Origin: Candidatus Latescibacterota bacterium
GTDB taxonomy: Bacteria; Latescibacterota; UBA2968
Assembly (NCBI GenBank): GCA_965208125.1
Contig: OZ242320.1
Span: forward strand, 3,584,001-3,648,000
Direction: 5' to 3'
DNA length: 64,000 nt
A program made the translations under genes and the position numbers. The notes beneath the pieces are model-generated. The model did not search any database, had not been told where the DNA came from, and saw nothing but the letters and a program-made list of their open reading frames with translations. Position 1 is the stretch's first letter. Each line of letters starts with the position of its first letter. Of this stretch, positions 3,740 through 41,854 are shown one piece after another.

Positions 3740-3842
3740 ATCTAATTTCTCATCGTGTAGTTTGACAAGAAATAAACCGACAAGCCTCAAAACAGTTCAA
3801 ATTTTGGGTCACAGATCCTTCTTTGCGAAAGAACTTTAACTA

Positions 3843-10755: not shown

Positions 10756-11476
10756 TGAAGTCCGATTTGAATTTTTCGATGCAGTCGTGGCGGGTGCCTT
10801 CAAAGAGGTAGATTTTGCCGCGTATAGTCGCGGTTTCTCCGGGCGCGAGGGCACCTGCGCGAATTGATTGGTGCATGCAGCGCCAGGGGTTGTGACCCTG
10901 AACGGAGAGATAGTCTGCCCAGGCTATGCCCGCCACCCATGTGCGATCTGTGGATTCGCGCATCAGAATGCCGCCTGTGGCATTGATGGGCGATGTGGGC
11001 CATTTGTCGGACCAGACGGTTTCGGTATCTATTGCGTTGCGAAATGTGTAGTTGTAGTGAATGTCGCGGTGGATGAGGGGGACCAGACCCTCTTCGGCGA
11101 GGAAATAGGTACGCTCGTGGTCGTCGTCAAAAAATGCCCGGGTTTCGGAGACTTCGGGCTGTTTGCCGGGGTTAAAGCAGGGGATGATGGCGGCAATTTC
11201 GGGCCAGGTGCGGTCGGTTTTGTTGGTGATAGAGAGCAGTAGATCCGCCCCATTTTCACGCCCCGTGACATTGAGACGCAGACCGAGGTCGGGGTGTTCG
11301 AGGACACCCGCATTGTCGTCCAGTGTTTTTTGCGGCACATGTACGCCACCCGTGTGCTGGCCCGGGTGTACGGCTTCAAACATGTTCCACTCGTAGAACC
11401 AGAGGTACATGGTTAAATCATTTCGTCCCTCGGGCGCGAATGAAAATCCGCGTCGCCATTTATTTAATGTGATCAT
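10739..11476 (-). CDS. Hypothetical protein
   Basis: 245-aa ORF filling the gap between neighbouring genes; no recognised motif. Confidence 0.7.
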   Translation of the reverse strand: MITLNKWRRGFSFAPEGRNDLTMYLWFYEWNMFEAVHPGQHTGGVHVPQKTLDDNAGVLEHPDLGLRLNVTGRENGADLLLSITNKTDRTWPEIAAIIPCFNPGKQPEVSETRAFFDDDHERTYFLAEEGLVPLIHRDIHYNYTFRNAIDTETVWSDKWPTSPINATGGILMRESTDRTWVAGIAWADYLSVQGHNPWRCMHQSIRAGALAPGETATIRGKIYLFEGTRHDCIEKFKSDFIYGRV

Positions 11477-25665: not shown

Positions 25666-25676
25666 AGGGAGTTTTT

Positions 25677-27491
25677 ATGCGCAACGGCATTGCCGTGATT
25701 GATTTTGGCGGGCAATATGCCCATTTGATTGCCAATCGGATTCGCAGGTTGCGGGTTTATTCCGAAATTTTTCCGCCGGATGTTGATCCTGCGGCATTGC
25801 AGGGCGTGTCGGGCATGGTTTTTTCGGGTGGTCCGTCCAGTGTATATGATCCCGATCCGCCTGCATTTAACCCCAGATTGTTGGATGCGGATTTGCCTGT
25901 GCTCGGGCTGTGTTATGGACATCAGTTGTTGTGCATGCATTTGGGGGGTGAGGTTGTTGCTGGTGAGGTGCGAGAATACGGTTCTGCCAGGTTGAATATT
26001 GCAGGTGGGTCGGATTTGTTTGCCGGGCTTGGCGATTCCCAGGTGGTGTGGATGAGCCACGGCGATGTGGTCGCAACGCTGCCAGAGGGTTTTGAAATTT
26101 TGGGGGCGACAGTGGATTGTCCTTCGGCTGCGGTGGGCGATGTCAAACGCAGAATTTATGGCTTGCAATTTCATCCCGAGGTGGCACACACGCCGCGCGG
26201 ATTGGATATTATCGATAATTTTCTGACGATATGCGATGCGCCTCGAACCTGGACTATGGGCAATTATGCCGAGGTGGTTATGGAGGAGATGCGGGAGAAG
26301 GTGGGGGATCGCAATGTGTTTTTGCTGGTGTCGGGTGGGGTCGATTCTTCGGTGGCTTTTGTGCTGTTTAATAGGGCGCTGGGGGCAGACCGGGTGTTGG
26401 GATTGCATATTGACAATGGTTTTATGCGAAAGGGCGAGACGGCTGCGGTGGAGGTTTTTTTGAAAAAGGAGGGGTTTGACAATTTGATTGTCGAGGATGC
26501 CAGTGACGATTTTTTGTTGGGTGTGGAGGGTCTGGTCGATCCAGAAGCAAAGCGCGAGGCGATTGGACAAACATTTCTACAGGTGAAGGACGAGGTGATG
26601 GCGCACTTGCATCTGGATGCAGATCAATGGGTTTTGGGGCAGGGGACGCTTTATCCCGATACCATAGAATCGGGAGGGACAGAGCACGCGGCGTTGATTA
26701 AGACGCACCACAATCGCATTGATTTGATCGATGAGTTGATTGCCCAGGGCAAGGTTGTCGAGCCTTTGGCACAGTTGTACAAGGATGAGGTGCGCGAGTT
26801 GGGGAGCGAGTTGGGGTTGCCCGATCATCTGGTGTGGCGACATCCGTTTCCCGGTCCCGGTCTGGCTGTGCGCTGTTTGTGCTCAGATGGTGCGGTGGAT
26901 GGGGTTGATATTGCAGCATCAGAGAGGGCTGCTGCTGAGATCGCCTCTGAGGCGGGTTTGCAATTGCAGGTTTTGCCCGTTAAGAGTGTGGGGGTTCAGG
27001 GCGATTTTCGCACGTATTCGCATCCTGCAATTGTTTCGGGTTTCACAGCCGAGCGCAATGGCGATTGGCGCGTGCTCGAAGATATGTCAACGCGGATTAC
27101 CAATAGCGTGTCGGGTATTAATCGCGTGGTTTGTCTTGTTGCGCCAGATATGTTGCCCGGGTTGCGTCTCAAACGCGCTTTTTTGACCTATCAGAGGCTC
27201 GATGTTTTGCGGGAGGCAGATGCTATTGCCATGCGCGTGCTCGACCGCGCGGGTCTTATGTCCTCTGTGTCTCAGATGCCGACTGTTCTGGTGCCGTTGA
27301 CGACAGATGGACAAGATGAGATTGTGATTTTGCGTCCGATTACGACCCCGGATTTTATGACTGCGCGATTTGCCGAATTGCCCCACAATCTGGTGCGCGA
27401 TATAGCGGGCGAGATACTGGATCTGCCCGGTGTCGCTGCCGTGGGGTACGACATAACCCACAAACCGCCAGGGACTGTGGAATGGGAATGA
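25677..27491 (+). CDS. guaA: GMP synthase (glutamine-hydrolysing), long form
   Basis: DFGGQY, SGGP, G.CYG.Q, QFHPE, SGGVDS, IKTHHN, HPFPGPGL, KPPGTVEWE. Confidence 0.95.
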   Translation: MRNGIAVIDFGGQYAHLIANRIRRLRVYSEIFPPDVDPAALQGVSGMVFSGGPSSVYDPDPPAFNPRLLDADLPVLGLCYGHQLLCMHLGGEVVAGEVREYGSARLNIAGGSDLFAGLGDSQVVWMSHGDVVATLPEGFEILGATVDCPSAAVGDVKRRIYGLQFHPEVAHTPRGLDIIDNFLTICDAPRTWTMGNYAEVVMEEMREKVGDRNVFLLVSGGVDSSVAFVLFNRALGADRVLGLHIDNGFMRKGETAAVEVFLKKEGFDNLIVEDASDDFLLGVEGLVDPEAKREAIGQTFLQVKDEVMAHLHLDADQWVLGQGTLYPDTIESGGTEHAALIKTHHNRIDLIDELIAQGKVVEPLAQLYKDEVRELGSELGLPDHLVWRHPFPGPGLAVRCLCSDGAVDGVDIAASERAAAEIASEAGLQLQVLPVKSVGVQGDFRTYSHPAIVSGFTAERNGDWRVLEDMSTRITNSVSGINRVVCLVAPDMLPGLRLKRAFLTYQRLDVLREADAIAMRVLDRAGLMSSVSQMPTVLVPLTTDGQDEIVILRPITTPDFMTARFAELPHNLVRDIAGEILDLPGVAAVGYDITHKPPGTVEWE

Positions 27492-27533: not shown

Positions 27534-28376
27534 ATGAATTTCAAACCCACTTCTGACCATACGTGGAACGGACTAATTTGCGGTGTTGTATTATATATGC
27601 TCTTTGTCGTAGCTCCCGTAATTATAATCCTGAGATATTTTTTGAATATCGATTATGGTTCCCTGATGATTGGCTTGATTGTGTTTCTTATCTACTTTGT
27701 AATAAAAAGAAAAATGTATTGGGCTCAGGGGGATAGAGCGATAGTGTTGACGTTGAGTTTCTTTAGGTCCAATGCGAAAAATAAAAATAATATAAAGGAG
27801 TTCAATTACGACAAGGATCAGGATATTCTTAAAGTAGATTTAGATAAAGATGGTATTTTTCATATGCTTATGTTTTATTTTGCATTTGGTATCGCCATTG
27901 CTGTTCAATTTTTATTTTTTGGGGAGATCGAATTGCGTTTTTCGGGCATTGATATATGGAAGTTATTGGGATGTATTTGCCTCGTTATAATTCTTCACGA
28001 AGCGCTCCATGGTTTTGCCGCGCTACTGTGGGGGAGGATCCCTGGGCGTTCAATACATTTCGGAGTCAACTGGCGACAGTTCATGTTTTATTGTCATTGC
28101 GATAAACCCATGAAGGTGAATACTTGGCGAATTTTTGTCCTTTTACCTCTCCTTATCACCACACCTATTGCGGGGCTTATTTGGTGGTTAGATCCATCTA
28201 TTTGGTCGCTATTGTTCTTCAGCATAACAGTAGCTTTTTGTTCTAGAGATGTCTTGTTATTTTTCCAGACCCGCCAGGTTGAAAATGACAAATGGATTCA
28301 AGCCCACGAATCAGAACCTGGTTTCTATATCCTGCCAGACGCTATCGCCACATCCTCTGAAGAACACCACAGATAA
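27534..28376 (+). CDS. DUF3267-like putative membrane metalloprotease
   Basis: Multiple TM segments, LHEALHG, FG......YCH, late conserved D. Confidence 0.7.
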   Translation: MNFKPTSDHTWNGLICGVVLYMLFVVAPVIIILRYFLNIDYGSLMIGLIVFLIYFVIKRKMYWAQGDRAIVLTLSFFRSNAKNKNNIKEFNYDKDQDILKVDLDKDGIFHMLMFYFAFGIAIAVQFLFFGEIELRFSGIDIWKLLGCICLVIILHEALHGFAALLWGRIPGRSIHFGVNWRQFMFYCHCDKPMKVNTWRIFVLLPLLITTPIAGLIWWLDPSIWSLLFFSITVAFCSRDVLLFFQTRQVENDKWIQAHESEPGFYILPDAIATSSEEHHR

Positions 28377-28427: not shown

Positions 28428-29285
28428 ATGACATATCCAAATTTGAAGCAGTCTATTTGGTTGCTGATATTATTGATTCTCATTACAATTGGCTTGACTG
28501 TATTGATAGTCATTATAGGTGCCATTATTGACGAGCCTTTGTATGAGTATGATTACTATTCTGGGCTTTTGCCGCTGGCAAGTTTTATTCTCATTTTGTA
28601 CTATGTTTCGCATCGGACAGGTCGAACATGGGCAGATATGTTGCCTCTTGCGATTAGAAATATAGACTATGACTGGCGCATGTGGCTTTCCGTTGGGTTC
28701 TCTATCCTTGGACTGGGGATTGTTCTGACTGAATTGTCCAATGCGGTGATATCTGTGTTGCCCATGCCCGAAGTGTTTCAGGACATCTTTCATCAATCCT
28801 TCGGAAAAGAAACATCTTATCTGTCAGCCTTATTTGTCGCAGTTGTAATAGCACCTCTTACTGAAGAGATCGTTTTTAGAGGCATTATCTTGAAAGGTTT
28901 ATTGGCACATTGTACTCAAAATCGGGCGGTTATTTGGTCGGCGATTCTGTTTGGTCTATTTCATCTGAATCCGTGGCAATTTCCAGTGGCTTTTATATTG
29001 GGACTTATCTTTGCCTATTGGGTTATTCAAACGGGATCTTTGTGGCCTGCAATTTTGGGGCACGCACTGAACAATTTGATATCTGTGACATCGCTGCATT
29101 TCGATGTACCAGGGTTTCCAGTTTCAGAAGATTTTAATGTTGTGGTTCACAATCCGTGGTGGTTGAATGTGTGCGGACCGATATTGGCTGTTCTTGGGTT
29201 GTGGTGGTTTTATCAGGTGGCGAAGCGCAACAAAACAGATCAGCTTGAGGCGAGAGTTGAACCCGAAGGAACTCAGGAGATGTGA
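28428..29285 (+). CDS. CPBP (Abi/CAAX) intramembrane protease
   Basis: APLTEEIVFRG, FGLFH, H.LNN motifs. Confidence 0.9.
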   Translation: MTYPNLKQSIWLLILLILITIGLTVLIVIIGAIIDEPLYEYDYYSGLLPLASFILILYYVSHRTGRTWADMLPLAIRNIDYDWRMWLSVGFSILGLGIVLTELSNAVISVLPMPEVFQDIFHQSFGKETSYLSALFVAVVIAPLTEEIVFRGIILKGLLAHCTQNRAVIWSAILFGLFHLNPWQFPVAFILGLIFAYWVIQTGSLWPAILGHALNNLISVTSLHFDVPGFPVSEDFNVVVHNPWWLNVCGPILAVLGLWWFYQVAKRNKTDQLEARVEPEGTQEM

Positions 29286-29469
29286 TAATTGAAAACAAAT
29301 ATAGCCTATTATGAGACCGTATGAAATTGTGATTTTGCGTCCGATAGAGTTGTTTCTTTTCACTTTTTTGAATTGCAATGGAACAAAATGTACCCCTTTT
29401 CTTAAATAGCGACTCCCCTGATTAGCAAGCGTGATCTGCTAACATCAATTATATATCCTTGTTTTATCG

Positions 29470-29499
29470 TGCCTTAGAATATTCTAAGGCATTTTTTTT
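29470..29499. terminator. Perfect 22-bp palindrome plus T-tract (terminator or operator)
   Basis: TGCCTTAGAATATTCTAAGGCA followed by T8. Confidence 0.55.
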
Positions 29500-29605: not shown

Positions 29606-32149
29606 ATGAAGATTTTACATATTCTGGATGTTTCGCTGCCACACCGACAAAGCGGCTACAGTTTGCGAAGCCAATATATTATCAACACGCAGAAAGCACT
29701 TGGCTTTGATCCTGTGGTGCTCACGCGATGGGGGAGGTCTGAACAACTCGTGGATGGTGTCGAATATATCGATGACGTGCCTTATTTGAGAAATACTTCT
29801 GAAGCATACGCGATACGTGTGGGTGAACGTCTGGGCAAGTTTCAATTGCGGGATACGCCACAAATTTATCACGCGGGGCAGGAGCAACACTTTCGCAAGC
29901 GCGTTGCGCGGGCTGTTGAGGCAGAAAAACCCGATGTGTTGCACGCTGCTTCGCCAGGCAGAAACGCGCAGTTTGCGATTGATGTAGGGCATTATTACGG
30001 CTTGCCCGTAGTGTATGAGGTGCGGGGTTTGTGGCACGATAGCGGTGTGGCGCAAGGTATGCTGGTTCCCGATTCAGAAGCGTATCGCCAGCAACACGCA
30101 GAACATGTCAATGCGATGCGACAAGCTGATGCTGTGGTGACGCTGTCCGAGGTGTTGAAAATAGAGTGCATACGCGAAGGGGTTGACGAAGACAAAATAG
30201 GCGTGGTGCCCAATGGTGTGGCAATAGAGCAATATGCACCCAAAACTCGGTTGAGCGAACTTGCCAAGCGCCTGGGGATTGAATCGGGAGATGTGGTGTT
30301 GGGCTATATCGGTCTCGTGCGGTCGCTGGAGGGATTGCGGTTGTTGTTGCAGGCGTGTGAGGTTCTTCGCGGGCGGTATGCCAAGCTCAAAGTGTTGATT
30401 GTGGGTGGTGGACGAGATTTACCGGCGTTGCAGCGCGAAGCGCGTGAACGCGGTCTCTCGGATATGGTGATTTTTACGGGTGAAATACCGCACGACCAGA
30501 TTGCTGCGTATTACGCGATGTTAGATGTTTTTGTGATTCCTCGCACACGTAGCCGCGTTACCGAACTGGTCACGCCGATGAAGCCCTATGAGGCGATGGC
30601 GATGGAAAAAGCCGTTGTTGTTAGTGATGTGGCTGCACTTACAGAGGTGGTTACAGATGGTGAAACCGGGCGGGTTTTTGTGGCAGATAATGTCGAGAGT
30701 CTTACTCAGACATGCGCCGAGCTCATTGAGAATCCCGCACTGCGGATGCACTTGGGAAAAAAGGGTAGCGAATGGGTGCGGTCAGAGCGCACATGGACGC
30801 GGATTGTGGAAGGCTATCGCGGGATATATGAGACCACTGTAGAATCATTACGGGATGTGTCTAATCCACATTTTGGGACTCAAATTCGACACAAGCGCAT
30901 TGCGTTTTATAGCCAGCATCTGATTGGCGTAGGACACCATTTTCGCAATCGACAGATTGTCAATGAACTGGTCAAAACAGGTGATATGTTTTTTATCGAT
31001 GGTGGCCGTCCCATTCCCGAGGCTGATCTCGATGAACGAGTGAAGCGTATTCCCCTGCCGCCCCTTCGCACGGGACCACAGGGCATTGAGCCTGTTGATA
31101 CAGGGCGAGATTTGCAGGCTGTGATGCGCGAGCGTCTGGTCAGACTTGCCGAAGCGATGGAACAGATTCGTCCCGATGTGTTGTGCATTGAGTTTTTCCC
31201 TTTTTCCAGATGGTCGCTCAAGAGCGAAATCCTCCATACTATTGTCAGGCTCAATCAGGTCAATCCCGGTGCGAAGGTGTTGTGTTCGCTGCGCGATGTT
31301 CCAACGCGAGCAAAGAGCGATGCGTTGCAACCGACTGTCGCGCTTGCTCAGAGACGCGATGGAGATGCGATGCGGTTTTATTCGGTGCCTTTTGGCGGGA
31401 TACATCACGAGTATTTGTCTTTTAATCGGCGGTATTACGAGGAGGTTGTGCCTGTGTTGAATCTGTATTTCGATGCGGTCTTAGTGCATGGTGATTCCAA
31501 ACTATCGCGGTTGGAAGATCACTTTCCCTGGGCTGCTGATATCGGTATTCCCATCATTTATACGGGGTTTGTTTCTGAGAAACTCAAAGACGTATCTCGG
31601 CCTGATGGTGCGCCGAATCGGTATGTCCTGGTCAGCGCTGGCGGTGGGAGTGGAGGGCTTGCGCTTGTTGCACCGTGTATTGAAGCGTGGAAACAATTGG
31701 ACCAGAACAATGCGCTTGATGGGCGCAAGATGGTGATTTTTGCAGGTGCGTTTATCAATGAAACGCATTTTGAGGCTTTGCGAGAATTGTGCGGTGATGG
31801 TCCGTTTCGCATTGAGCGTTTTACGTCCAATTTTTTGGCGTGGATGAAATACGCGGATTTGTCGATTAGTCGTGCGGGCTATAATACGTGTATGAATGTG
31901 CTTGAGGCACAAGTGCCATCGATTCTGGTGCCGAGCATTGCGATGGATGATCAGGTATTTCGCGCACAGCAGTTGATGGGGTTGGGTATTGCACAGGTGA
32001 TACATCCCGATCAAATAGGTGCGGGAAAGATGGCAAAAGCTATTGCCGAAATGCTCGAACGTTCTGTGTCCGAACACGATCTATCCATAGATGGTGCCGA
32101 GCAAACGCGAAAGTTCATAGAGCAGCAGTTAGCAAAACAGAAAAAATGA
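29606..32149 (+). CDS. Two-domain glycosyltransferase (GT4 + COG4671/GT28-C-like)
   Basis: N-half MKILHILD.SLP..SGY..R, VYEVRG.W, ELVTP.KP.EAMA; C-half FYSQHL.G.GH, VSAGGG, SRAGYNT.. Confidence 0.88.
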   Translation: MKILHILDVSLPHRQSGYSLRSQYIINTQKALGFDPVVLTRWGRSEQLVDGVEYIDDVPYLRNTSEAYAIRVGERLGKFQLRDTPQIYHAGQEQHFRKRVARAVEAEKPDVLHAASPGRNAQFAIDVGHYYGLPVVYEVRGLWHDSGVAQGMLVPDSEAYRQQHAEHVNAMRQADAVVTLSEVLKIECIREGVDEDKIGVVPNGVAIEQYAPKTRLSELAKRLGIESGDVVLGYIGLVRSLEGLRLLLQACEVLRGRYAKLKVLIVGGGRDLPALQREARERGLSDMVIFTGEIPHDQIAAYYAMLDVFVIPRTRSRVTELVTPMKPYEAMAMEKAVVVSDVAALTEVVTDGETGRVFVADNVESLTQTCAELIENPALRMHLGKKGSEWVRSERTWTRIVEGYRGIYETTVESLRDVSNPHFGTQIRHKRIAFYSQHLIGVGHHFRNRQIVNELVKTGDMFFIDGGRPIPEADLDERVKRIPLPPLRTGPQGIEPVDTGRDLQAVMRERLVRLAEAMEQIRPDVLCIEFFPFSRWSLKSEILHTIVRLNQVNPGAKVLCSLRDVPTRAKSDALQPTVALAQRRDGDAMRFYSVPFGGIHHEYLSFNRRYYEEVVPVLNLYFDAVLVHGDSKLSRLEDHFPWAADIGIPIIYTGFVSEKLKDVSRPDGAPNRYVLVSAGGGSGGLALVAPCIEAWKQLDQNNALDGRKMVIFAGAFINETHFEALRELCGDGPFRIERFTSNFLAWMKYADLSISRAGYNTCMNVLEAQVPSILVPSIAMDDQVFRAQQLMGLGIAQVIHPDQIGAGKMAKAIAEMLERSVSEHDLSIDGAEQTRKFIEQQLAKQKK

Positions 32150-32157
32150 GGTAAAAA

Positions 32158-33561
32158 ATGAAAATTTACGTGCCACACCCATATTGCGACCGCGAGAAAG
32201 TGATAGCGTCAAATAGTGGGGCGTCTCTATCAGGTTTTAACCATGTGCTGGCGTTATCGAAGTATTGCGAGGTGTATATGCCAGCGTCTGAAGCGGTGGA
32301 TTATGGTCCGAATTTGCACGGTATTCGACTCGCATTTGAGACGATTGATTCGTCTCGCCAGTGGTTTGCGCGGCAGGGATTTGACGGGGTGCTGATGTTT
32401 GAACCCAAAGCAGATGACCTGGCATTTTTTCGCCATGTGTGTCCCGCACCCATTGTGATTCGGCTGTCGTGTTCTTTTGGGCGCAATCGCGATTTTGTCG
32501 ATAAAGTGCTTCAATGTTATTCGCTGTTGCGGCCTTATGATGCCTTGTCGCCCAAGTCGGCGTATGTCGCTGACGAAGTGGGCAAGTTGGTGTTTGACAA
32601 GTCGTATTTGCGTCCGATTACCAATGGGGTAGATGCCGAGGTGTTCAAACCGATGGATAAGTTGCAAGCGCGCAAAGAGGTCGTGGATAAGACAGGTGAT
32701 CAACGCTTTTTGGAGATGCCTGTGGTGGGTTTTTGCGGGCGGTTTGAACCGGGCAAGGGCGCGTATTCATTTTTGCGAATGGCCGATCTGAATCCCAATG
32801 TGTTGTTTACAGTGATTGGCAAGCAGTTCGCTCCCGTGACGCATCCTCCCAATGTGATCTTTTTGGGCGCGCAACCCTATACGGATATGCCGCTGTATTA
32901 CAATATGCTGGATGTGTTGTGCGCGTTGTCGGTGTATTCGTATGAGTCGTGTCCCTCAACTGTGATAGAGGGCATGGCGTGTGGTCTTCCGGTTGTGGCG
33001 ACAAATTTTGCGGGTGCGCCAGAGTTGTTGGGCAGTTGTGGGCAGTTGATAGAGATTGAGCGATTTGAAGATGAGCCATTGAATGTGACGGGTTATATCG
33101 ATCCTGAGGTGATTTCAGATGCTGTGCGCGGTTTGTTGAATAGCAAAACGGAGCGGGAGAAATTGGGTGAGTGTGCTCGCAAACGCGCACTCGAATTTTC
33201 CTGGGATTGTATGGCACAGCAGCACCTGGCATTGTTTGAAGATCTGCTGACCAAACGCGATACACCCGCGTGTCCGATTCCACTAACCGTGAGTTTTACA
33301 CAGGGTTGTGATATATCTGGTGTGCCGAAGAGTGTGTCTAAGGGGTTTAACTATTTGGGCAGCAGGCAAGGCCCATTGCCGCGTATCCCGTTTTTGGGGC
33401 AGGATATGTCCCTTATTGAGGGTCTGGGCCTTCACTTGATGCAACATTTACATCCAAACGAAGTCGAAGCCGTCCTGTTGGGATTATGTGAAACGCGCGC
33501 TACAGCCTACAAAACGCTTCGCAAAATCCGACGCTTCAGCGATATGCTCACTGCTCCCTGA
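32158..33561 (+). CDS. GT4 glycosyltransferase with ~100-aa C-terminal extension
   Basis: NGVD...F.P, GRFEPGKG, E-x7-E motif ESCPSTVIEGMACGLPVV, FSW; extra C-terminal domain. Confidence 0.85.
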   Translation: MKIYVPHPYCDREKVIASNSGASLSGFNHVLALSKYCEVYMPASEAVDYGPNLHGIRLAFETIDSSRQWFARQGFDGVLMFEPKADDLAFFRHVCPAPIVIRLSCSFGRNRDFVDKVLQCYSLLRPYDALSPKSAYVADEVGKLVFDKSYLRPITNGVDAEVFKPMDKLQARKEVVDKTGDQRFLEMPVVGFCGRFEPGKGAYSFLRMADLNPNVLFTVIGKQFAPVTHPPNVIFLGAQPYTDMPLYYNMLDVLCALSVYSYESCPSTVIEGMACGLPVVATNFAGAPELLGSCGQLIEIERFEDEPLNVTGYIDPEVISDAVRGLLNSKTEREKLGECARKRALEFSWDCMAQQHLALFEDLLTKRDTPACPIPLTVSFTQGCDISGVPKSVSKGFNYLGSRQGPLPRIPFLGQDMSLIEGLGLHLMQHLHPNEVEAVLLGLCETRATAYKTLRKIRRFSDMLTAP

Positions 33562-33614
33562 TGGATAGAAGGATACAGCTTGCGCTGAGGTAGTGAAGAA
33601 AGGAGGTGATAGAG

Positions 33615-33812
33615 ATGAAGAGACGAGTTATATCAAATCCCGAGCAATCGGTCGCTGATGTGACCCCTCTACCGATTAAAACGAGTGATCTGGACGCGTA
33701 TCAAATTGCTCATATATCTGGTGGATCTATATTGGATGTCATCGGTGATTATATCAGTGAGGAATTGGGTATAGACGTACCAGATTTAGATGTTCATCCA
33801 TGGTCCTGGTAA
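33615..33812 (+). CDS. Precursor peptide 1 (double-glycine leader)
   Basis: SD AGGAGG; leader ...LDAYQIAHISGG, then core SILDVIGDYISEELGIDVPDLDVHPWSW. Confidence 0.85.
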   Translation: MKRRVISNPEQSVADVTPLPIKTSDLDAYQIAHISGGSILDVIGDYISEELGIDVPDLDVHPWSW

Positions 33813-33966
33813 GTTTTTGGTAGAGTGAATATTGGGCTTCCTGATAGTAATCGCGCTACACCTGCAAAAATCGACACTTCAGCGACACGCTCACGGCTTC
33901 TTGCGTCCCCAACAAGGGATGCTATTTGCACTGCGCTGAGGTGGTAAAGAAAGGAGGTGAGGAAGA

Positions 33967-34182
33967 ATGGCGAGACGAATCATATCAAATCCTGAGCAAT
34001 CGGCTTCCTGTGTGACCGATCTACCGCTTGAAACGACGGATCTGAACGTGCATAAATTTTCTCAGGTCTCTGGTGGATGTTACCCGACCCCGGAGGAAGA
34101 GTTCAGTGAAGAATATGACCCAACACTGGAAGGTATTTTGGATGATGTTGACCCCTTTTACCCCTGGTCCTGGCCAATGTAA
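33967..34182 (+). CDS. Precursor peptide 2 (double-glycine leader)
   Basis: SD AGGAGG; leader ...LNVHKFSQVSGG, then core CYPTPEEEFSEEYDPTLEGILDDVDPFYPWSWPM. Confidence 0.85.
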   Translation: MARRIISNPEQSASCVTDLPLETTDLNVHKFSQVSGGCYPTPEEEFSEEYDPTLEGILDDVDPFYPWSWPM

Positions 34183-34328
34183 TTCAGAACCCGGTAAGTA
34201 TTTGGCTCAGTGGAACCTGTTGGTCATTTGTTGTAAATCTCTAATTTTTATTTTTCAAGTACTAAAAAACCAGCTTTATTCTACAAAGTACTTGATAAAT
34301 TTTACAATTCATTTATTCGGAGGATATC

Positions 34329-34637
34329 ATGTCTGCTGTCGCATTAAATAATCGCGTGACTTCAGATTCAGACGCTATTTTTGCGTCTTGCACATCACTG
34401 CCCATCCAGCAAACAACGCTCAATTGTGAAAAAATGGCAGGTATTGATGGTTTATGCCTGTGGGGGACAGTTTTTGGTGAAGTGCACGAGCTTATTTCTG
34501 AATGGGAAGATCAGTTGGAAGATGTTAATACTGTAGCTTCGCTATATTATTATGGCGGTGTTGTTGTTTTGTCTGCCGACCCTCCTGAGCCTGGGGTTGA
34601 GTATCCCCTAATAATACCTAATAAGAAGCTGTTTTGA
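34329..34637 (+). CDS. Precursor peptide 3 (GL-type leader variant)
   Basis: SD GGAGG; leader aligns without gaps to peptides 1/2 and ends LNCEKMAGIDGL, then C. Confidence 0.8.
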   Translation: MSAVALNNRVTSDSDAIFASCTSLPIQQTTLNCEKMAGIDGLCLWGTVFGEVHELISEWEDQLEDVNTVASLYYYGGVVVLSADPPEPGVEYPLIIPNKKLF

Positions 34638-34747
34638 AATTATTGGGACCTATCCCTTTACTCCTATCCGCGTCAATTTAAGGGGTAAATCACTGTCACT
34701 CCTGCACATGTGGTATCACAATTCCTTTCATTTACCCGGAGGCTATC

Positions 34748-35011
34748 ATGTCCCCTATTGCATCAAATAATCGCTTGACTACGTATTCAGATGCCGCTTT
34801 CGCCTCTTGCACGGCACTATCTATCCATCAAACAACGCTCGACATTGAAGAAATGGCAGGTATTAATGGATTGTGTCATTCTGAGCAAGAAGAAGAAGAG
34901 AATTCTGCAATCCCGACACCACCCAGTCAAGCGGTCATTATGTATTACATATTGAAAGCTAAGAGGCGAATGGAAACCCCCGTGATTTACTGTTCCTATT
35001 CTATTTGGTAA
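34748..35011 (+). CDS. Precursor peptide 4 (GL-type leader variant)
   Basis: SD GGAGG; leader paralogous to peptide 3 and ends LDIEEMAGINGL, then C. Confidence 0.8.
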   Translation: MSPIASNNRLTTYSDAAFASCTALSIHQTTLDIEEMAGINGLCHSEQEEEENSAIPTPPSQAVIMYYILKAKRRMETPVIYCSYSIW

Positions 35012-35032
35012 GGTGCATCAACCCGTTATTTC

Positions 35033-35064
35033 TGTGGCTACGCCGTGGGCATGGCGTAGCCACA
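35033..35064. promoter_or_regulatory. GC-rich stem-loop between precursor genes and exporter
   Basis: TGTGGCTACGCC-N8-GGCGTAGCCACA, perfect 12-bp stem, no T-tract. Confidence 0.65.
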
Positions 35065-35083
35065 CCACATAATGGATTGAAAA

Positions 35084-38000
35084 ATGAATCTTTCCCACTT
35101 TTTCTTAAAAAACTCGGTGTGGACGCAGTCTGTTCATTTTCCCTTTGGAGGTGTTGTTTTTCAACAGGGGCAAGCGGGTGAGGCGTTTTATATTGTGGAG
35201 TCTGGACGGTTGCGGGTGATTAAGCAGGATGCGAATGGTACTTCGACAACTGTGGGATATTTGTATGCGGGCGATCATTTTGGTGAAGGGGCACTGTTGA
35301 CCAGGCAGGGGCATCGGGCAACGGTGCGAGCGGTTGAGGATGCGGAGGTGTTGCAGGTGCCCAAGGATGAGTTTTTTAAGGCTGTGAGAAAAAGTTCTGA
35401 TGTACGAGCCTACCTCGAAGAGCAGGTTGCCTGTATTGCATATCGGGATTTTACGCGATTTTTGAAAGGAGATGTTCCGGGCGAGGCGATGCGGGTGTTG
35501 TTCGCGCGGTTGAAGCGCGAGGCAGCTGAGGAGGGTGTGACCGTTGTTGAGCGAGGTCAGTTGGGTCAGCGATTTTATTTGCTTGGTAGCGGTCAGTTGG
35601 AGGCTGTGTTAGAAAATGGTGATACGGTGATTCTACGCCCGGGTGATTATTTTGGCGATGGTAGAGATGATGAAACGATCATTCGCAGTCGGCGTGATGG
35701 TGTACTCTTTTATATAGATAAAAGCAATTTTAATAAGCTAAAAGCTATGATGCCGGGATTCGAGGAGGCGTTGGATAAAGGCTGCATATTGCGTGGAGAA
35801 GAGGGATCAAGAGGGGAATTGCGACCTGTGCTTGAGCCGCCTGTTGTGCGATCTGTTACCCAAAAAGATACAGAGCCTAATACAGCATCCAATGTGGTTA
35901 ATATCAGAATAGACGGTGAAAAACCACAAGTACCTACATTGTTGCGTTTTCCGTTTTTGAAGCAACACGATCAATCAGATTGCGGCGCGGCGTGTTTAGG
36001 CATGATCTGTAAGTATTACAAGATGCCTATTGGATTAAACAGGTTGCGCGATATGTCCAATGTGTCGCGGTATGGCACGTCAATGGCGGCATTGGCCGAG
36101 GCTGCGGAGACACTGGGCTTTGTCACGCGCGGTGTGCGAACGGGTTATGAAGCTCTGATGCGAACAGAATTGCCAGCTATTCTCCACTGGGAAGGCAATC
36201 ATTTTGTGGTCCTGTATCAGATGAATAAAAAGGAAGTGAACATAGCGGATCCAGGTGTGGGTATTCGCAAGCTGTCGCGGGCAGAGTTTGAAAAGGGTTG
36301 GACAAACATGGCGCTTTTGTTGGAATACACGGATCAGGTGGCAGAGAATGAACCCTCTCGGTCTTCTTTTAAGCGGTTTTTTCCATTAATCAGACCCTAT
36401 ACAAGCATTTTGATTGAGGTATTGTTGGCGTCTTTGGTACTCAGTTTGTTTGGTCTGGCATCACCCATTTTTATGCAGACGATTGTCGATCAGGTCTTAG
36501 TGCATCACGATGAGGATTTATTGAATTTGATGCTGGTGGGTATGGTCGTTGTCGCATTGTTCCAGATGGGTACATCGACGTTGCGTGTCTATTTAATCGG
36601 GTATGTGAGTGCGCGATTGAGCATTGCGATGTTGTCGCGTTTTTATCGGCATTTATTGGCACTATCCATGCGGTTTTTTGCCCTCAGGCGCACGGGCGAT
36701 TTGACCACGCGGTTTCGGGAGAATGCAACGATTCAGCGTTTGTTGACGGATACGACGGTTTCTGCGGTTCTGGATTTTATCATGCTTTTTGTCTATCTGG
36801 GTCTGATGTTTTATTACAATGCGGAACTGACGCTGGTCATGTTGATTTTTGTGCCGCTATCTGTGGGTCTCACGCTGATTTACACACCCATTTTGAAGTC
36901 TTTTAGCCAGCGTGCTTTTCTGGCGCGTGCCGAACAATCCTCGGTTTTAATTGATGCGCTGCACGGTATTGATGTGGTTAAAGCCGAGGCGGTGGAGCGC
37001 GCGACACGGTGGCATTGGGAAGGTAAGTTCACAAGGGAAATTCAGATTGGCTTTCAACGGTTAAAAATGCAGATGTTGTTTGGGGGGATGGGAAGGGTAA
37101 TTAATTTGCTGAGCAGTACGGTGATTTTGTGGTATGGTGCCTCATTAGTGATTGCGGGGGACCTGTCGGTTGGGCAGTTGATGGCGTTTAATGCGCTGAT
37201 TGGCAATGTGATGGGTCCCATTATGGGCTTGATCGGAATATGGCCTCAGGTGCAAGAAGCGCGTATTGCCCTGGATCGGCTGAATGATGTGTATGACACG
37301 CAGATGGAAGATGCGCGGCAGCAAGGTCAGGGTTTGATCTTAAAGCATTTGGTAGGGCGCGTGGTTTTTGATGCGGTGTTTTTTAGATATGGTGTTGGTT
37401 CTGATGAACCTTATGTGTTGAATAATATAGACCTGACGCTTGAGCCAGGTCAAAAGGTTGCAGTTGTGGGACGCAGTGGTGCGGGTAAGACGACGTTGGT
37501 CAAGCTGTTGCCCCGTTTGTTTGATCCGTCAGAAGGTCGGGTGATGATAGATGGTATGGATGTGCGAGATCTGGATCCCCATTGGTTACGGCGACAGGTG
37601 GGTATGGTGATGCAGGAGCCGTTTTTGTTTTCTGGCACGATTGCAGAAAATATCGCTATAGGTCAGTCAGATGCGGATATGGATCGCATTTTGGAAGTGG
37701 CGAAACTATCGTGTGTCCACGATTTCGTAAGTGATATGCCTTTGGGGTATGAGACAAAGGTGGGTGAGCAGGGCGTGGGGCTGTCTGGCGGACAGCGACA
37801 GCGGATTGCCATTGCCCGAGCACTTTACCATGATCCGAAAATTTTGATTTTTGACGAGGCGACCAATGCGTTGGATACAGATTCAGAACAGGCGATACAG
37901 GCGAATTTAGATCTGTTTTTGGATGATCGCACGGCGTTGATTATCGCGCATCGGTTGAGTACGGTGCGCGATGCGGATGCGATTGTGGTCTTAGATAAGG

Positions 38001-38092
38001 GTCATATTGTAGAGATGGGCACGCACGATGAGTTGATGGTGCAACAGGGTTTGTATTATCACATGTGTAGTCAACAGTTGCAGGTGGTGTGA
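35084..38092 (+). CDS. Peptidase-containing ABC transporter (cNMP-binding domains + C39 peptidase + ABC TMD/NBD)
   Basis: Two cNMP-like domains (FYIVESG...GDHFGE; FYLLGSG...GDYFG); C39 Q.....DCGAACL, HFVV, IADP; GRSGAGKTT, LSGGQRQR, DEAT, IAHRL. Confidence 0.93.
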   Translation: MNLSHFFLKNSVWTQSVHFPFGGVVFQQGQAGEAFYIVESGRLRVIKQDANGTSTTVGYLYAGDHFGEGALLTRQGHRATVRAVEDAEVLQVPKDEFFKAVRKSSDVRAYLEEQVACIAYRDFTRFLKGDVPGEAMRVLFARLKREAAEEGVTVVERGQLGQRFYLLGSGQLEAVLENGDTVILRPGDYFGDGRDDETIIRSRRDGVLFYIDKSNFNKLKAMMPGFEEALDKGCILRGEEGSRGELRPVLEPPVVRSVTQKDTEPNTASNVVNIRIDGEKPQVPTLLRFPFLKQHDQSDCGAACLGMICKYYKMPIGLNRLRDMSNVSRYGTSMAALAEAAETLGFVTRGVRTGYEALMRTELPAILHWEGNHFVVLYQMNKKEVNIADPGVGIRKLSRAEFEKGWTNMALLLEYTDQVAENEPSRSSFKRFFPLIRPYTSILIEVLLASLVLSLFGLASPIFMQTIVDQVLVHHDEDLLNLMLVGMVVVALFQMGTSTLRVYLIGYVSARLSIAMLSRFYRHLLALSMRFFALRRTGDLTTRFRENATIQRLLTDTTVSAVLDFIMLFVYLGLMFYYNAELTLVMLIFVPLSVGLTLIYTPILKSFSQRAFLARAEQSSVLIDALHGIDVVKAEAVERATRWHWEGKFTREIQIGFQRLKMQMLFGGMGRVINLLSSTVILWYGASLVIAGDLSVGQLMAFNALIGNVMGPIMGLIGIWPQVQEARIALDRLNDVYDTQMEDARQQGQGLILKHLVGRVVFDAVFFRYGVGSDEPYVLNNIDLTLEPGQKVAVVGRSGAGKTTLVKLLPRLFDPSEGRVMIDGMDVRDLDPHWLRRQVGMVMQEPFLFSGTIAENIAIGQSDADMDRILEVAKLSCVHDFVSDMPLGYETKVGEQGVGLSGGQRQRIAIARALYHDPKILIFDEATNALDTDSEQAIQANLDLFLDDRTALIIAHRLSTVRDADAIVVLDKGHIVEMGTHDELMVQQGLYYHMCSQQLQVV

Positions 38093-39475
38093 ATGGCAGA
38101 ATCGCTTTTAGAGACACCAGCAGAGACAATGTCTCCAGGTATAATCCAGGGACAAGATGACGCGGCAGAAGAGGTGCATGCGTTTATGGGATCCTTGCGG
38201 CCCTTTTGGGGTCGTGCATTGCTCTATATTGTCCTGCTATTTGTAATTATTGCCATTATCTGGGCATGGTGGGGCAAGGTGGATGTGGTGGCATCAGCGC
38301 CTTTTCGGCTGGTGCCCCTCGGACAGGTGAAGACGATGCAGGCGCGGCGAGGTGGTGAGATTGAGTTGATTGGTGTGAAAGAGGGAGATCAAGTCGAGAA
38401 AGGGCAGGTATTGTTCAAGCTCAAATCGTGGGAGACCTGGGGAGAGTTGCGGGAATGGGAACAGGCAAAGATGGCTTTTCAAAAGGCAGAGTATGATCTC
38501 AAGACGGTGTTGTCTCAAAGGGCGAGGTTAAATCGAGAGACGATAGAGGCATTGGAGCAACGTCTTTCTGTTTTGCAGCAGTTTATGGAGGCACATCAGG
38601 ATGCGTTGGAAGATTATCAAAGCGATGTGGCCGGTGTTGAGGGATCGAAAAGCAAAGTATCTGACGTGGGGTTGCAAGCGCAGATCGGGTTTCGTCAGGC
38701 TGAAATTGATCATTTGAAGGGGGAGTTTTTGCAGCAAAAGACGCTGTTTGAGCGCGAGTTGATCAGCCGGGCGGATATGAATCGCGCGCGCGTGCAGTAT
38801 TTAAGTGCTCTGTCTGCGCTTCCCTCGCGTATGTCGGAGATATACAAGAATGAAATGGCTGTACAGGATCTCAAGCGTCAAATCACAGAGGCGCGCATTG
38901 CACATGGTCGCGAGACTTCGCAGATGCAATACGCTTATGAGACTGCACAATTGCGATTGGAACAGGCGCGCAAACGCATTGATCGGACCCTCGAAGCCGA
39001 GTCGGATTTGATTCTGGCACCTGAGTCGGGCGTTGTAACACAGGTGATAGTGAATGCGATTGGACAGGTGATCAACAAGGGGCAGGCTCTCATTGCACTG
39101 GCACCTGCTTCAGCACCGATGGTTGCAGAGGTGAGGGTTTTAAATAAAGATGTGGGCTTGCTCAAACTCGGGCAATTGGTCAAGCTGAAATACGATGCGT
39201 ATGCCTTTCAGGATTTTGGTATCAAACGCGGGTGGCTTACATCCATCTCGCCCGATGCGGTGATCGATGAACGTATTGGACCGATATTTAAGTGCGTTGT
39301 TGAATTGGAAGAAAATACCATGCGCGTGAAAGGATATGACAAACCTCTGATGTTTGGTATGAAGGGCACGGCGGAGATGATGACAGATCGGCAATCGGTT
39401 TTGCTGATATTACTTTCTCCTTTGCGACAGCTTTACGAGTCGGCGAGGTACGATGTTGAGGAGGGTGCGTTGTGA
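38093..39475 (+). CDS. HlyD family membrane fusion protein
   Basis: N-terminal TM, VKEGD.V.KGQ.L, long coiled coil, AP.SG, DA..FQ.FG, GM.G.A. Confidence 0.9.
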   Translation: MAESLLETPAETMSPGIIQGQDDAAEEVHAFMGSLRPFWGRALLYIVLLFVIIAIIWAWWGKVDVVASAPFRLVPLGQVKTMQARRGGEIELIGVKEGDQVEKGQVLFKLKSWETWGELREWEQAKMAFQKAEYDLKTVLSQRARLNRETIEALEQRLSVLQQFMEAHQDALEDYQSDVAGVEGSKSKVSDVGLQAQIGFRQAEIDHLKGEFLQQKTLFERELISRADMNRARVQYLSALSALPSRMSEIYKNEMAVQDLKRQITEARIAHGRETSQMQYAYETAQLRLEQARKRIDRTLEAESDLILAPESGVVTQVIVNAIGQVINKGQALIALAPASAPMVAEVRVLNKDVGLLKLGQLVKLKYDAYAFQDFGIKRGWLTSISPDAVIDERIGPIFKCVVELEENTMRVKGYDKPLMFGMKGTAEMMTDRQSVLLILLSPLRQLYESARYDVEEGAL

Positions 39476-40251
39476 TGGTGGAGGATGCTATGTTGATTCA
39501 GGTCAATAGTATCGCAGTATCATTGCACCATATTGTGCGACAATTAGGAGTTGCCGATAATCTACGTTTTTTTGATGAATTTGCGCGTAGAGAATTGATC
39601 CGGCAACTCGCGCTACGTGAGGGTGTTTGTGCAGCGCGTGAAGATATTCAGCGTAAGGTGAATGAATGGCGGTATCAACATCGCCTCGAACGGGTGGAAG
39701 ATACAGAGGCTTATCTTGCAAAGCGGGGTATTACGCTTCAGGATGTGGCAGAAGATGCCGAGGTGAGGCGGCTGGAGTTTTTGCTGTCTGAGAAGATTGC
39801 CGAGGGACAGGTCGAACCCTATTTTGCACAACACACATTGGAATTTGATGAGGCGGAGATTTGCTGGATTTTTCACACGGATGAGGGTGTGATCGACGAG
39901 GTTGATTTGCAGATACGAGAAGATGGTGCAGATTTTTACGCGATGGCGCGTCGGTTTTCTCAAGATGCACACACGCGGCCAGGTAGTGGCTTTTTGGGTC
40001 GTGTGAGGCGCAAGCAGTTGCCAAAGGGGATTGCTGCACGCGTGTTTGCCGCTTCACCGGGTGAAATTTTGGGTCCAGAAAAAGTATCGAAAGGCTTTGC
40101 GCTGTATTTGTTGCAGGAACGCTATCCGGCAATGCTGGACGAGCGGATTAAAAAAGAAATTCGCAAGCACCTGTTTAATCAGTGGTTGCAACGAGAGATG
40201 CAGCGGGCAGATATACGATATCCGATTTGGCAGGCGAAAGTCTCTAAATAG
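39472..40251 (+). CDS. Parvulin/PpiC-type peptidylprolyl isomerase-like protein
   Basis: F..MAR.FS.D......G.LG, VFAA.PGE..GP; same layout as PPIases of C39-ABC/HlyD loci. Confidence 0.8.
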   Translation: MMVEDAMLIQVNSIAVSLHHIVRQLGVADNLRFFDEFARRELIRQLALREGVCAAREDIQRKVNEWRYQHRLERVEDTEAYLAKRGITLQDVAEDAEVRRLEFLLSEKIAEGQVEPYFAQHTLEFDEAEICWIFHTDEGVIDEVDLQIREDGADFYAMARRFSQDAHTRPGSGFLGRVRRKQLPKGIAARVFAASPGEILGPEKVSKGFALYLLQERYPAMLDERIKKEIRKHLFNQWLQREMQRADIRYPIWQAKVSK

Positions 40252-40264
40252 AAGGAGAATATGG

Positions 40265-41344
40265 GTGAAAATTATTCTTGTTGCGGGTGCGCGGCCCAAT
40301 TTTATGAAAGTTGCCCCGCTGTGGAATAGACTGATCAAGATGCCCGATGTGTTTGATCCGATTTTGGTGCATACGGGACAACACTATGACGATTTTATGT
40401 CCGAGATTTTTTTTCGAGACTTAAATCTTCCCAGGCCACATTATGAATTAAATGTGGGGTCGGGCAGTCACGCGTACCAGACAGCGCAGATCATGATGGG
40501 ATTTGAGGATGTTTTACTTCAAGAAAGGCCGGATTGGGTTCTTGTCGTTGGCGATGTAAATTCCACTCTGGCATGTGCGATGGATGCAGCAAAATTGCAA
40601 ATCCCCGTTGGACACATAGAGGCAGGGTTGAGAAGCAGGGATAGGTCAATGCCCGAAGAGATCAATCGGCTCGTTGTGGATGCCATATCCGATCTTTTGT
40701 TTGCACCTTCGATGCAGGCGTGTGAAAATCTGAGGCGCGAAGGCATAGAAGAGAGCCGCATTCATTTTGTGGGCAATGTGATGATAGATTCCCTTGTGTT
40801 GCTATCTCCCAAAGCCGATGAATCCCGCATTCTGGATATACACGGTTTATCAGTTCAAGAGTACGTTTTTCTGACTCTCCATCGAGCCTCAAATGTCGAT
40901 TGCCCAGATACGTTGGCTGGCATTGTATCCGCGTTGCAAACCTTCAAATGTCCAATCGCCTGGCCTTTACATCCGAGAACCCGCAATCGCCTATCCCAAT
41001 TTGGTTTTTTGCAAAGGCTTGAGATGATGGACAATATCAAACTTATGGATCCGGTGGGCTATCTCGATTCTTTAAAACTTCAGAAGAATGCAAAATGTGT
41101 GATGACAGATTCTGGAGGATTGCAAGAAGAGACGACGGCTTTGGGTGTGCCGTGTTTGACGCTTAGAGAGCATACAGAACGCCCAGAGACTATAGATATT
41201 GGGACGAATACACTTGTGGGTGTTTGTCCCGAACGCATTGTTGCAGAGGCTGAATCTGTTTTGAAAGGGCACTATAAATCCGGTCGCTTGCCCGAGTTGT
41301 GGGATGGCAATACCGCAGAGCGAATTGTTGCTTTGCTTTGTTGA
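40265..41344 (+). CDS. wecB: UDP-N-acetylglucosamine 2-epimerase (non-hydrolysing)
   Basis: GARPNFMK, HTGQHYD, H.EAGLRS, PEEINR, TLHR..N, TDSGGLQEE, TERPE; GTG start after GAAGGAG. Confidence 0.92.
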   Translation: MKIILVAGARPNFMKVAPLWNRLIKMPDVFDPILVHTGQHYDDFMSEIFFRDLNLPRPHYELNVGSGSHAYQTAQIMMGFEDVLLQERPDWVLVVGDVNSTLACAMDAAKLQIPVGHIEAGLRSRDRSMPEEINRLVVDAISDLLFAPSMQACENLRREGIEESRIHFVGNVMIDSLVLLSPKADESRILDIHGLSVQEYVFLTLHRASNVDCPDTLAGIVSALQTFKCPIAWPLHPRTRNRLSQFGFLQRLEMMDNIKLMDPVGYLDSLKLQKNAKCVMTDSGGLQEETTALGVPCLTLREHTERPETIDIGTNTLVGVCPERIVAEAESVLKGHYKSGRLPELWDGNTAERIVALLC

Positions 41345-41440
41345 CGTATGGCGTACGCCAAGTTCTCAATTGTGTCAGAAATGTAATTTCTCTATAATTG
41401 TATGAAGAGGAAGTATATTAAAAAAAGAGGCTGTAACAGG

Positions 41441-41854
41441 ATGGCAGAAAAAACAGACGAAGAAAGGGTGTCTATTTGGAGCACAGGAGATAAAGAAAGA
41501 ATATGGTTTATATCCTTAGCCTCGGCATTCTTTTATACTTCACTTATACTGATTCTTTGGCACAAAATTATTGAAGTTGATTACAATGCGATTGTTGAAG
41601 TAATCAATGTCATAGGATCTGCAAGTCTTGCTGCCATAGCATTAGCATTCTTCATTATAGAGGGGGTAAATCTTATGATTATTCCAGTTGAAAAATATCG
41701 CCAAAAACAACGACAGAAAGGTCGACAGGAGGGTCGGCGAGAAGAGCGGCAAAAGATTTTTAAAGCAATAGAGTTGGCCTGTCCGGAGGTTGATATAGAG
41801 GCCATCCGTGCTGCATTAGAAGACCAGAATAGGAGTGCAGAAAACAGTAAATGA
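41441..41854 (+). CDS. Hypothetical membrane protein with GRQEGRREER-type tail
   Basis: Two TM segments followed by a charged EGR.E stretch. Confidence 0.7.
   Translation: MAEKTDEERVSIWSTGDKERIWFISLASAFFYTSLILILWHKIIEVDYNAIVEVINVIGSASLAAIALAFFIIEGVNLMIIPVEKYRQKQRQKGRQEGRREERQKIFKAIELACPEVDIEAIRAALEDQNRSAENSK

Follow-up and report, generated by a model that had tools for sequence, protein, structure and literature searches.

We analysed a 64,000-nucleotide stretch of contig OZ242320.1 (GenBank assembly GCA_965208125.1, positions 3,584,001 to 3,648,000), hereafter the window, from an uncultured marine Candidatus Latescibacterota bacterium, in which two glycosyltransferase (GT) genes stand directly before four small peptide precursors and a peptide exporter. 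By using open reading frame (ORF) detection and scans of the window proteins against family libraries (15 cluster proteins and 36 other window ORFs), we found thirteen co-directional genes on the + strand, bounded by guaA (25662-27491) and by a convergent PhyH-family gene; every cluster gene listed by a first-pass annotation was recovered there. GT_A (29606-32149) encodes a protein in which an N-terminal Glycos_transf_1 (GT4) domain (E 8e-31) is joined to a Glyco_tran_28_C domain (E 7e-12) at the C-terminus, and GT_B (32158-33561) a 467-residue GT4 enzyme (GT4 C-domain, E 1e-18). They are followed by the precursor genes pep1 (33606-33812, with a likely ATG at 33615 preceded by AGGAGG), pep2 (33967-34182), pep3 (34329-34637) and pep4 (34748-35011), by a long-type peptidase-containing ATP-binding cassette transporter (PCAT; 35084-38092), by an HlyD-family type I secretion adaptor (38093-39475; TIGR01843, 216.5 bits for a cut-off of 208.65), by a PPIC-type rotamase-like protein (39472-40251; Pfam Rotamase, E 2e-12), and by WecB, a non-hydrolysing UDP-GlcNAc 2-epimerase (40265-41344; TIGR00236, 335 bits for a cut-off of 210), all on the + strand. 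Intergenic distances are short: GT_B begins 8 nt after the GT_A stop, pep1 lies 45-54 nt downstream of GT_B, PCAT and HlyD directly abut, and the rotamase gene start overlaps the HlyD end by 4 nt. A GGAGG-type site precedes every peptide ORF.

The four precursors fall into two leader subfamilies. The first-pass description of four leader-sharing double-glycine peptides is accurate for pep1 and pep2, whose leaders end in S-G-G and carry Leu at position -12 and Ile at -7 and -4, but not for pep3 and pep4, whose leaders end in G-I-D-G-L and G-I-N-G-L, respectively, and which form a separate, noncanonical subfamily. The pep1 core is acidic and ends in P-W-S-W; that of pep2 is also acidic, begins with Cys and ends in P-W-S-W-P-M. 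A lipoprotein reading of the G-G-C stretch was rejected, given the lack of a hydrophobic signal segment. The four cores contain 0, 1, 1 and 2 Cys and have net charges of -2 to -10, an acidity that is atypical by comparison with cationic bacteriocins. An ortholog of pep2, 90% identical, is encoded in a related locus (L019).

The first-pass annotation had also counted three GT4-type domains in the two GT proteins. Two of them are indeed GT4, one in GT_B and one in the N-terminal half of GT_A (residues ~1-420), but the third, which forms the C-terminal half of GT_A (residues ~424-847, hereafter the C-domain), is MurG/GT1-like, with MurG (E 7e-4) and the oleandomycin GT as its best sequence matches in the PDB. 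Over all the cluster GTs the best PDB matches were MshA-type GT4 enzymes, MurG and OleD, and no GT2 family was matched. The GT_A N-domain is related to TIGR04063 (stp3, a GT of the PEP-CTERM/XrtA system), which it matches over profile positions 1-395 of 397 at 332 bits, below the cut-off of 442. Nucleotide-sugar motifs are invariant in both GT_A and GT_B; in particular, the glycine loops and a G-Y-N-T stretch of the GT_A C-domain are invariant in 27 sequences, and E263-x7-E271 of GT_B is invariant. GT_B further possesses a highly conserved, family-specific C-terminal domain of ~100 residues (residues ~365-467), for which we found no Pfam family and, by comparing a profile with PDB sequences, 0 matches at E up to 10; no Pfam family was found for its N-terminal 185 residues either, and a protein atlas search returned generic GT4 clusters only, and no structure. 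The GT_B family is narrow: of the 45 clusters that share at least 47% identity with it, 41 are full-length, and below these there are only partial matches at 33%; relatives with 47-60% identity occur on contigs of 7-8 Mb. With 3173 representatives at E up to 1e-3, the MurG-like family that includes the GT_A C-domain is large; it is uncharacterised, and some of its members carry fused GT4, GT9 or kinase domains. A complex prediction for the GT_A C-domain, GT_B and pep2, run with alignment inputs and no controls, scored 0.01 for a mark of 0.32, which speaks neither for nor against binding.

The PCAT combines two cNMP_binding stretches with Peptidase_C39 (E 3e-40, profile positions 2-130 of 133), ABC_membrane and ABC_tran domains, and scores above the cut-off of TIGR01193 (530 bits for 524), so that double-glycine leaders (pep1 and pep2) and a C39 exporter occur together. 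In the C39 domain, the Cys, His and Asp pointed out previously are visible in the translation, and by analogy with other PCATs they would be catalytic. The rotamase-like protein is only a distant relative of TIGR04500, a PpiC-related putative peptide maturation protein (86.2 bits for a cut-off of 180, profile positions 87-336 of 340). A C39-ABC transporter with an N-terminal extension, HlyD, a rotamase protein and double-glycine precursors thus share one cluster, which is the layout of cyanobacterial groups I, II and VI: as given in the relevant parts of Wang et al. (2011; PMC3140520), these comprise a long C39-ABC transporter, HlyD and a SurA-like protein with a rotamase domain, joined in group II by M16 peptidases. 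A PCAT of this kind is Nostoc HetC, in which guanosine tetraphosphate (ppGpp) is bound by the cNMP-type domain (PMC10986499). Other cassettes of this type, with PCAT, HlyD and rotamase genes, occur in the genus of the window, accompanied by genes for two M16 (insulinase-like) peptidases and for a response regulator (L070, L072 and L074, with PCAT identity ~56%, and L081); in L070, L072 and L074 no ORF matched the leader profile.

Two immunity-like genes precede GT_A on the + strand, one for a DUF3267 putative zincin membrane protein (27534-28376; Pfam PF11667, E 3e-16) and one for a CPBP/Abi (Rce1-like) intramembrane protease (28428-29285; Pfam PF02517, E 4e-23). Both belong to the system, and relatives place both between the peptides and the PCAT: CPBP and DUF3267 genes are present in 1-5 copies in related clusters, the CPBP genes often in that interval, and DUF3267 homologs lie inside the peptide/PCAT clusters of relatives. 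By gene presence, a CPBP-family membrane protease beside peptide genes corresponds to the organisation of class II bacteriocin/CPBP immunity loci, and CPBP and DUF3267 genes are the usual immunity-gene signature for membrane-active peptides. They point to toxin-and-immunity biology more than to the signalling that had been suggested in the first-pass annotation. In the interval between the CPBP gene and GT_A, a consensus scan located a terminator-like hairpin followed by a T run (29469-29492, + strand; 10 pairs, 8 T), which is a pattern match only. A promoter scan gave 20 sites for a mean of 24 in shuffled sequence, hence no excess.

Among the 15 cluster proteins and the 36 other window ORFs, we found no member of the lanthipeptide, YcaO, radical-SAM, ATP-grasp or thiol-disulfide families, and no Wzx, Wzy or priming-transferase family, as the first-pass annotation had stated for maturases of peptides that ribosomes make and that are then modified post-translationally (RiPPs) and for polysaccharide loci. 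None of these proteins is a priming transferase, Wzx, Wzy or an ABC-2 exporter, such as would adjoin the GTs in a polysaccharide or lipopolysaccharide (LPS) locus.

To what extent GTs and peptides are linked was examined in related genomes. Of 20 loci fetched around GT_A homologs as 20-kb stretches, 18 have leader-bearing ORFs and a PCAT after GT_A, or after its C-domain, in the same orientation, and then HlyD and the rotamase gene where the stretch reaches that far; further loci are organised likewise. This shared gene order indicates that the arrangement is not due to chance. GT_B is present in 17 of the 18 peptide-linked loci and absent from L020. When the rotamase gene was used as a marker of the cassette in 41 related genomes, 29 of 35 GT_B matches were found to share a contig with a rotamase-gene match at most 16 kb away. 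Of the other six, five lie on contigs without a rotamase-gene match (four of them in assemblies of at least 100 contigs) and one is 45.5 kb away, in genome G009. The claim that the GTs are repeatedly and tightly linked to peptide and PCAT genes is therefore borne out. The G009 exception (L045, positions 10001-11401) is a lone GT_B, 90% identical, beside selA/selB; it looks like a rearrangement, because the cluster of that genome has GT_A directly before the peptides, without GT_B. A genome may hold up to three or four copies of the cluster at different sites (three in G017). In metagenomes, a contig scan returned three short loci in which only the adjacency of GT_A and GT_B is seen. Contigs from sequencing runs (one RNA-library run and three others) are 85-99% alike over the GT_A, GT_B and PCAT regions, which is no measure of transcription, and contigs 85-95% alike are present in two runs labelled sponge metagenome.

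GT_B proteins divide into three classes by identity (82-91%, 69% and 52%), each of which precedes leader peptides and a PCAT cassette, and GT_B and the GT_A C-domain are found in the same three genera of the phylum. In the 69% class the partner GT_A has a reversed domain order, and one locus (L057) carries genes for a DegT-type aminotransferase, a GNAT protein and a nucleotidyltransferase upstream; in the 52% class the partner is a stand-alone MurG-like GT. Loci of these two classes also encode leader-bearing substrates of 136-156 residues, with 19-29% Ser+Thr and Ser/Thr/Gly-rich stretches past the cleavage site. The idea that GT_B and PCAT had diverged together was rejected, as the 69% and 52% GT_B classes adjoin nearly identical PCATs.

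The N-domain of GT_A and WecB vary together. Nine related loci contain the C-domain-only form of GT_A, and contigs that skip the N-domain region, joining 29591 or 29903 to 30900, were found in public data (one RNA-library run and one sponge-metagenome run); these are natural variants of GT_A without the GT4 N-domain and match the short form. Where GT_A is full-length, 11 of 13 loci have WecB no more than 5 kb from the rotamase gene; none of the nine loci with the C-domain-only form does. The two exceptions among the former are G009, with no WecB match, and G001, in which WecB is 0.9 Mb off. This co-variation ties WecB, and probably a sugar of the N-acetylmannosamine (ManNAc) type, to the N-domain, in partial agreement with the first-pass annotation; WecB belongs to an optional module. 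The same pairing recurs outside peptide clusters, in the two remaining fetched loci, L025 and L026, both of which associate a GT_A paralog 45% identical to GT_A, a WecB 90-91% identical to that of the window, another GT4 and an ABC-type ATPase; no PCAT was found in either. L025, the one of the two scanned against Pfam, further encodes a UDP-sugar dehydrogenase and an ABC-2 transporter protein and has the gene content of a polysaccharide-type locus. Downstream of WecB in the window, a 150-residue ORF without family match (41402-41854, +) has an 88%-identical copy downstream of the rotamase gene in L029 and may travel with the cluster.

A natural contrast is provided by the sister genus g6, which belongs to the sister family. 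All 13 g6 genomes contain the rotamase gene (64-73% identity), but we found GT_B in none of them at E up to 1e-30 (and in none of 15 with a profile), nor the GT_A C-domain in any of the 13 at E up to 1e-8. Five g6 loci were without any GT match within 20 kb; their peptides belong to the same leader family, their PCAT is 72-76% identical, and they contain many CPBP/DUF3267 genes. In a quick tree with midpoint root, supported by the Shimodaira-Hasegawa-like approximate likelihood ratio test (SH-aLRT) only, g6 PCATs nest among the GT-bearing cassettes, which implies that the GTs were lost. Tailoring enzymes are, however, often optional, and the comparison with g6 also yields a signal that speaks for glycosylation.

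The leaders of the two sets differ at their N-terminal end. An N-terminal Arg is invariant in the 47 unique GT-linked leaders and aligned in 6 of 17 unique g6 leaders (9 by eye), where it is replaced by Leu, Gln, His or Pro, depending on the peptide class. A Ser or Thr three positions after this Arg is present in 46 of 47 GT-linked leaders versus 10 of 17 g6 leaders. The Leu, Pro, Leu and Gly columns close to the double glycine are equally conserved in both sets, and GT-bearing genus g8, which belongs to the same family as g6, retains the leader motif. A GT recognition sequence would be expected to behave in this way, as a leader element under constraint only in the presence of GTs; neither the rotamase protein nor the PCAT, both retained in g6, is a good candidate for reading it. 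Differences extend to the cores. Of the short acidic peptides from GT-linked loci, 17 of 22 have Cys as first core residue (4 of these after an extra (D/G)-G) versus none of 12 homologous g6 peptides, net charges are -6 to -13 versus -5 to +2, and C-terminal W-x-S-W or P-W-S-W endings are confined to the GT-linked set. One peptide class, which ends in 4-7 consecutive Cys followed by D-D or K-R, occurs in both genera (L022 and L023 with GTs; L065, L067 and L069 without); metal binding or acylation are guesses as to its role. In the three g6 loci examined, a gene divergent from the peptide genes encodes a 680-780-residue membrane protein with a TMEM260-like protein O-mannosyltransferase (GT-C) domain (L065:17056-19251, +; L069:16665-19004, +; L067:6815-8863, -). 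Its position approximates that of GT_A/GT_B in the genus of the window, which could be mere synteny or a periplasmic alternative route of glycosylation.

Comparison with known systems indicates which part of the locus is unusual. The association of a long C39-ABC transporter with cNMP-type domains, HlyD, a rotamase protein and double-glycine precursors resembles cyanobacterial groups I, II and VI and the HetC-type PCAT, and the M16 pair of some sister cassettes recalls group II, as far as the descriptions in PMC3140520 and PMC10986499 extend; the exporter cassette is in this respect not the undescribed system announced by the first-pass annotation. The present clusters are unlike the cyanobacterial ones in host phylum (metagenome-assembled genomes labelled Latescibacterota or Poribacteria), in leader family, and in the addition of the GT pair and WecB; the string "glycosyl" is absent from the main text of PMC3140520. 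With glycocins (sublancin, glycocin F; SunS-type) the system shares ribosomal peptides with double-glycine leaders and a C39 PCAT, and the Cys-first cores may be compared with the often Cys-linked cytoplasmic glycosylation that glycocin precursors undergo before export. According to a 2025 paper (PMC11912497), glycosylation defines no RiPP class other than glycocins, whose GTs are of the GT2 family. Here, by contrast, the enzymes are GT4 and MurG/GT1-like with a GT-B fold, unlike the SunS-like GT2 enzymes (GT-A fold), in agreement with the first-pass distinction; moreover, the cores have 0-2 Cys, fewer than the at least 4 of nested disulfides, and the cluster contains no thioredoxin/DsbA-type gene.

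Paired GT-B proteins are also known from the GtfA/GtfB and SdgA/SdgB systems, which are GT4 O-glycosyltransferases of Ser-rich or Ser-Asp-repeat adhesins, that is, of large cell-wall substrates exported by the Sec or accessory Sec pathway. Their acceptor is a cytoplasmic polypeptide, as would be the case here, and its acidic or Ser-rich stretches resemble the cores of the window and of the sister cassettes. The peptides considered here are, unlike those adhesins, leader-cleaved and PCAT-exported, and apart from membership of the GT4 fold family the enzymes show no significant similarity in sequence. The L025 locus resembles the window in its fused GT4-GT28C protein, its WecB and its further GT4, and differs by having an ABC-2 transporter, an ATPase and a UDP-sugar dehydrogenase, absent here, in place of GT_B, peptides and PCAT. 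The closest functional analogy would be glycocin maturation, carried out with unrelated enzymes. The exporter part is of a known type, described first in cyanobacteria, and the unusual element is the conserved GT pair directly upstream of the peptides. A full-text literature search, supplements aside, returned no description of such a GT-plus-PCAT arrangement.

The best explanation for the island is a double-glycine peptide export locus of the long-PCAT/HlyD/rotamase type, with immunity-like CPBP and DUF3267 genes, that has gained a dedicated glycosylation module. We consider it an even call, from the sequence evidence at hand, that the two core GTs carry out leader-guided glycosylation of the peptides in the cytoplasm, before cleavage and export by the PCAT. 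In such a pathway, the MurG/GT1-like domain of GT_A and GT_B would recognise the precursors through the motif at the N-terminal end of the leader (Arg, then a hydrophobic residue, one residue of any kind, and Ser/Thr) and would attach sugar to them; where present, the GT4 N-domain of GT_A would lengthen the glycan by a sugar of the ManNAc type that WecB provides; and the PCAT would cut at the double-glycine site and export the product via HlyD. We infer both the role of the peptides as acceptor and the sugars used; the Cys at core position 1, or a Ser in acidic context, would be candidates for the modified residue, and our best guess for the function of the peptides is bacteriocin-like. A broader proposal, to which we lean slightly less than halfway, is that these clusters define a new class of glycopeptides: sponge-associated symbionts of the Latescibacterota/Poribacteria type would have their double-glycine precursors glycosylated by a dedicated GT-B pair reading a leader motif separate from the PCAT cleavage signal, with optional ManNAc extension by the WecB-linked GT4, yielding strongly acidic, possibly S- or O-linked products unlike the GT2-made glycocins.

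Several observations weigh against peptide glycosylation. The usual acceptors of MurG-type and GT4 enzymes are lipids or sugars, and the GT4, GT9 and kinase fusions of the wider C-domain family suggest work on glycans or glycolipids. The cores of the window are not Ser/Thr-rich (8-16%), and a Gly/Ala-rich peptide class looks alike with and without GTs. The first-pass annotation had named precursors and exporters without GTs, and GTs in the company of LPS or exopolysaccharide enzymes, as observations that would speak against glycosylation, and both occur in part: the former in g6, whose genomes lack GT_B and the GT_A C-domain, and the latter in L025, where the GT_A paralog stands in a polysaccharide-type locus. 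Since g6 has orthologous peptides and exporter but no GTs, glycosylation is not necessary for cleavage or export. Moreover, the contrasts in leaders and cores rest on one loss event in one genus and are thus confounded with phylogeny.

Part of this evidence would be accommodated if the GT pair, with WecB where present, made a glycolipid or envelope glycan, either for self-protection against the cell's own membrane-active peptides or for an unrelated surface role, while the peptides were exported unmodified, as in class II. A GT28/MurG-like enzyme and a GT4 form a classic pair for glycolipids or lipid-linked glycans, the GT_A N-domain has weak NCBIfam matches to glycolipid synthases, a GT_A paralog and WecB sit together in a polysaccharide-type locus, g6 peptides need no GT, and the clusters are already rich in immunity-type genes. 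We nevertheless regard this explanation as rather unlikely: genes for a flippase, ligase, ABC-2 transporter or priming transferase are absent from the window, GT_B hardly ever occurs apart from the PCAT cassette, the GT genes lie directly upstream of the peptides and apart from CPBP/DUF3267, and decay of the N-terminal part of the leader in the GT-free lineage, with the part close to the double glycine conserved, is not what it predicts. It is quite unlikely, in turn, that the synteny was simply inherited and the genes are functionally uncoupled, an ordinary bacteriocin locus with unmodified peptides happening to lie beside glycan genes in this genus. Most of the evidence does come from closely related genomes of one genus, WecB and the GT_A N-domain are dispensable, and modules shuffle, as shown by the near-identical PCAT modules joined to differing GT_B in the 69% and 52% classes. 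However, the pairing recurs at different chromosomal sites, in several copies per genome, and in three genera and three diverged classes, and its persistence through the shuffling of modules argues for selection on the pairing itself. Very unlikely, finally, is a scheme in which the GTs glycosylate another protein of the system, such as a transport or immunity component or the larger Ser/Thr/Gly-rich exported proteins of sister cassettes. The 136-156-residue proteins of the 52% and 69% classes would be suitable acceptors for enzymes of this kind, given that GT4 enzymes O-glycosylate Ser-rich and Ser-Asp-repeat proteins (GtfA, SdgA/SdgB), and the GT4 part of one relative has weak NCBIfam matches to SdgA/SdgB. 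In the window, however, there is no long Ser-rich substrate and the leader is carried by the four short peptides pep1-pep4 only; and as the larger proteins of the sister cassettes share the leader family, the scheme merges, for those cassettes, with leader-guided peptide glycosylation.

Elsewhere in the window, two paralogous sigma-54 activators of ~1070 residues with Reg_prop/Y_Y_Y sensor domains (124-3318 and 4028-7240, both on the - strand) flank a small gene of the superinfection-immunity family (3416-3790, -); in L024, sigma-54 activators likewise adjoin the GT and PCAT cluster. An IS605 OrfB/TnpB-like gene with a Cas12f1-like TNB domain (20248-21486, +) adjoins a GmrSD-type restriction endonuclease gene (21752-23422, -), in a region of lower GC content (0.43).

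If leader-guided glycosylation by the GT pair is correct, it would represent a second, unrelated enzymology for ribosomal glycopeptides beside that of the GT2 glycocins, and would provide a new leader recognition motif together with new enzymes for peptide glyco-engineering. Genus g6, in which leader family and exporter are shared and core chemistry differs, offers a natural comparison. If the GTs instead make a protective glycolipid, the clusters would reveal an unusual immunity strategy tied to bacteriocin-type loci. For the abundant uncultured symbionts of sponges, peptides modified in the proposed way would give a chemical handle on what these bacteria secrete.

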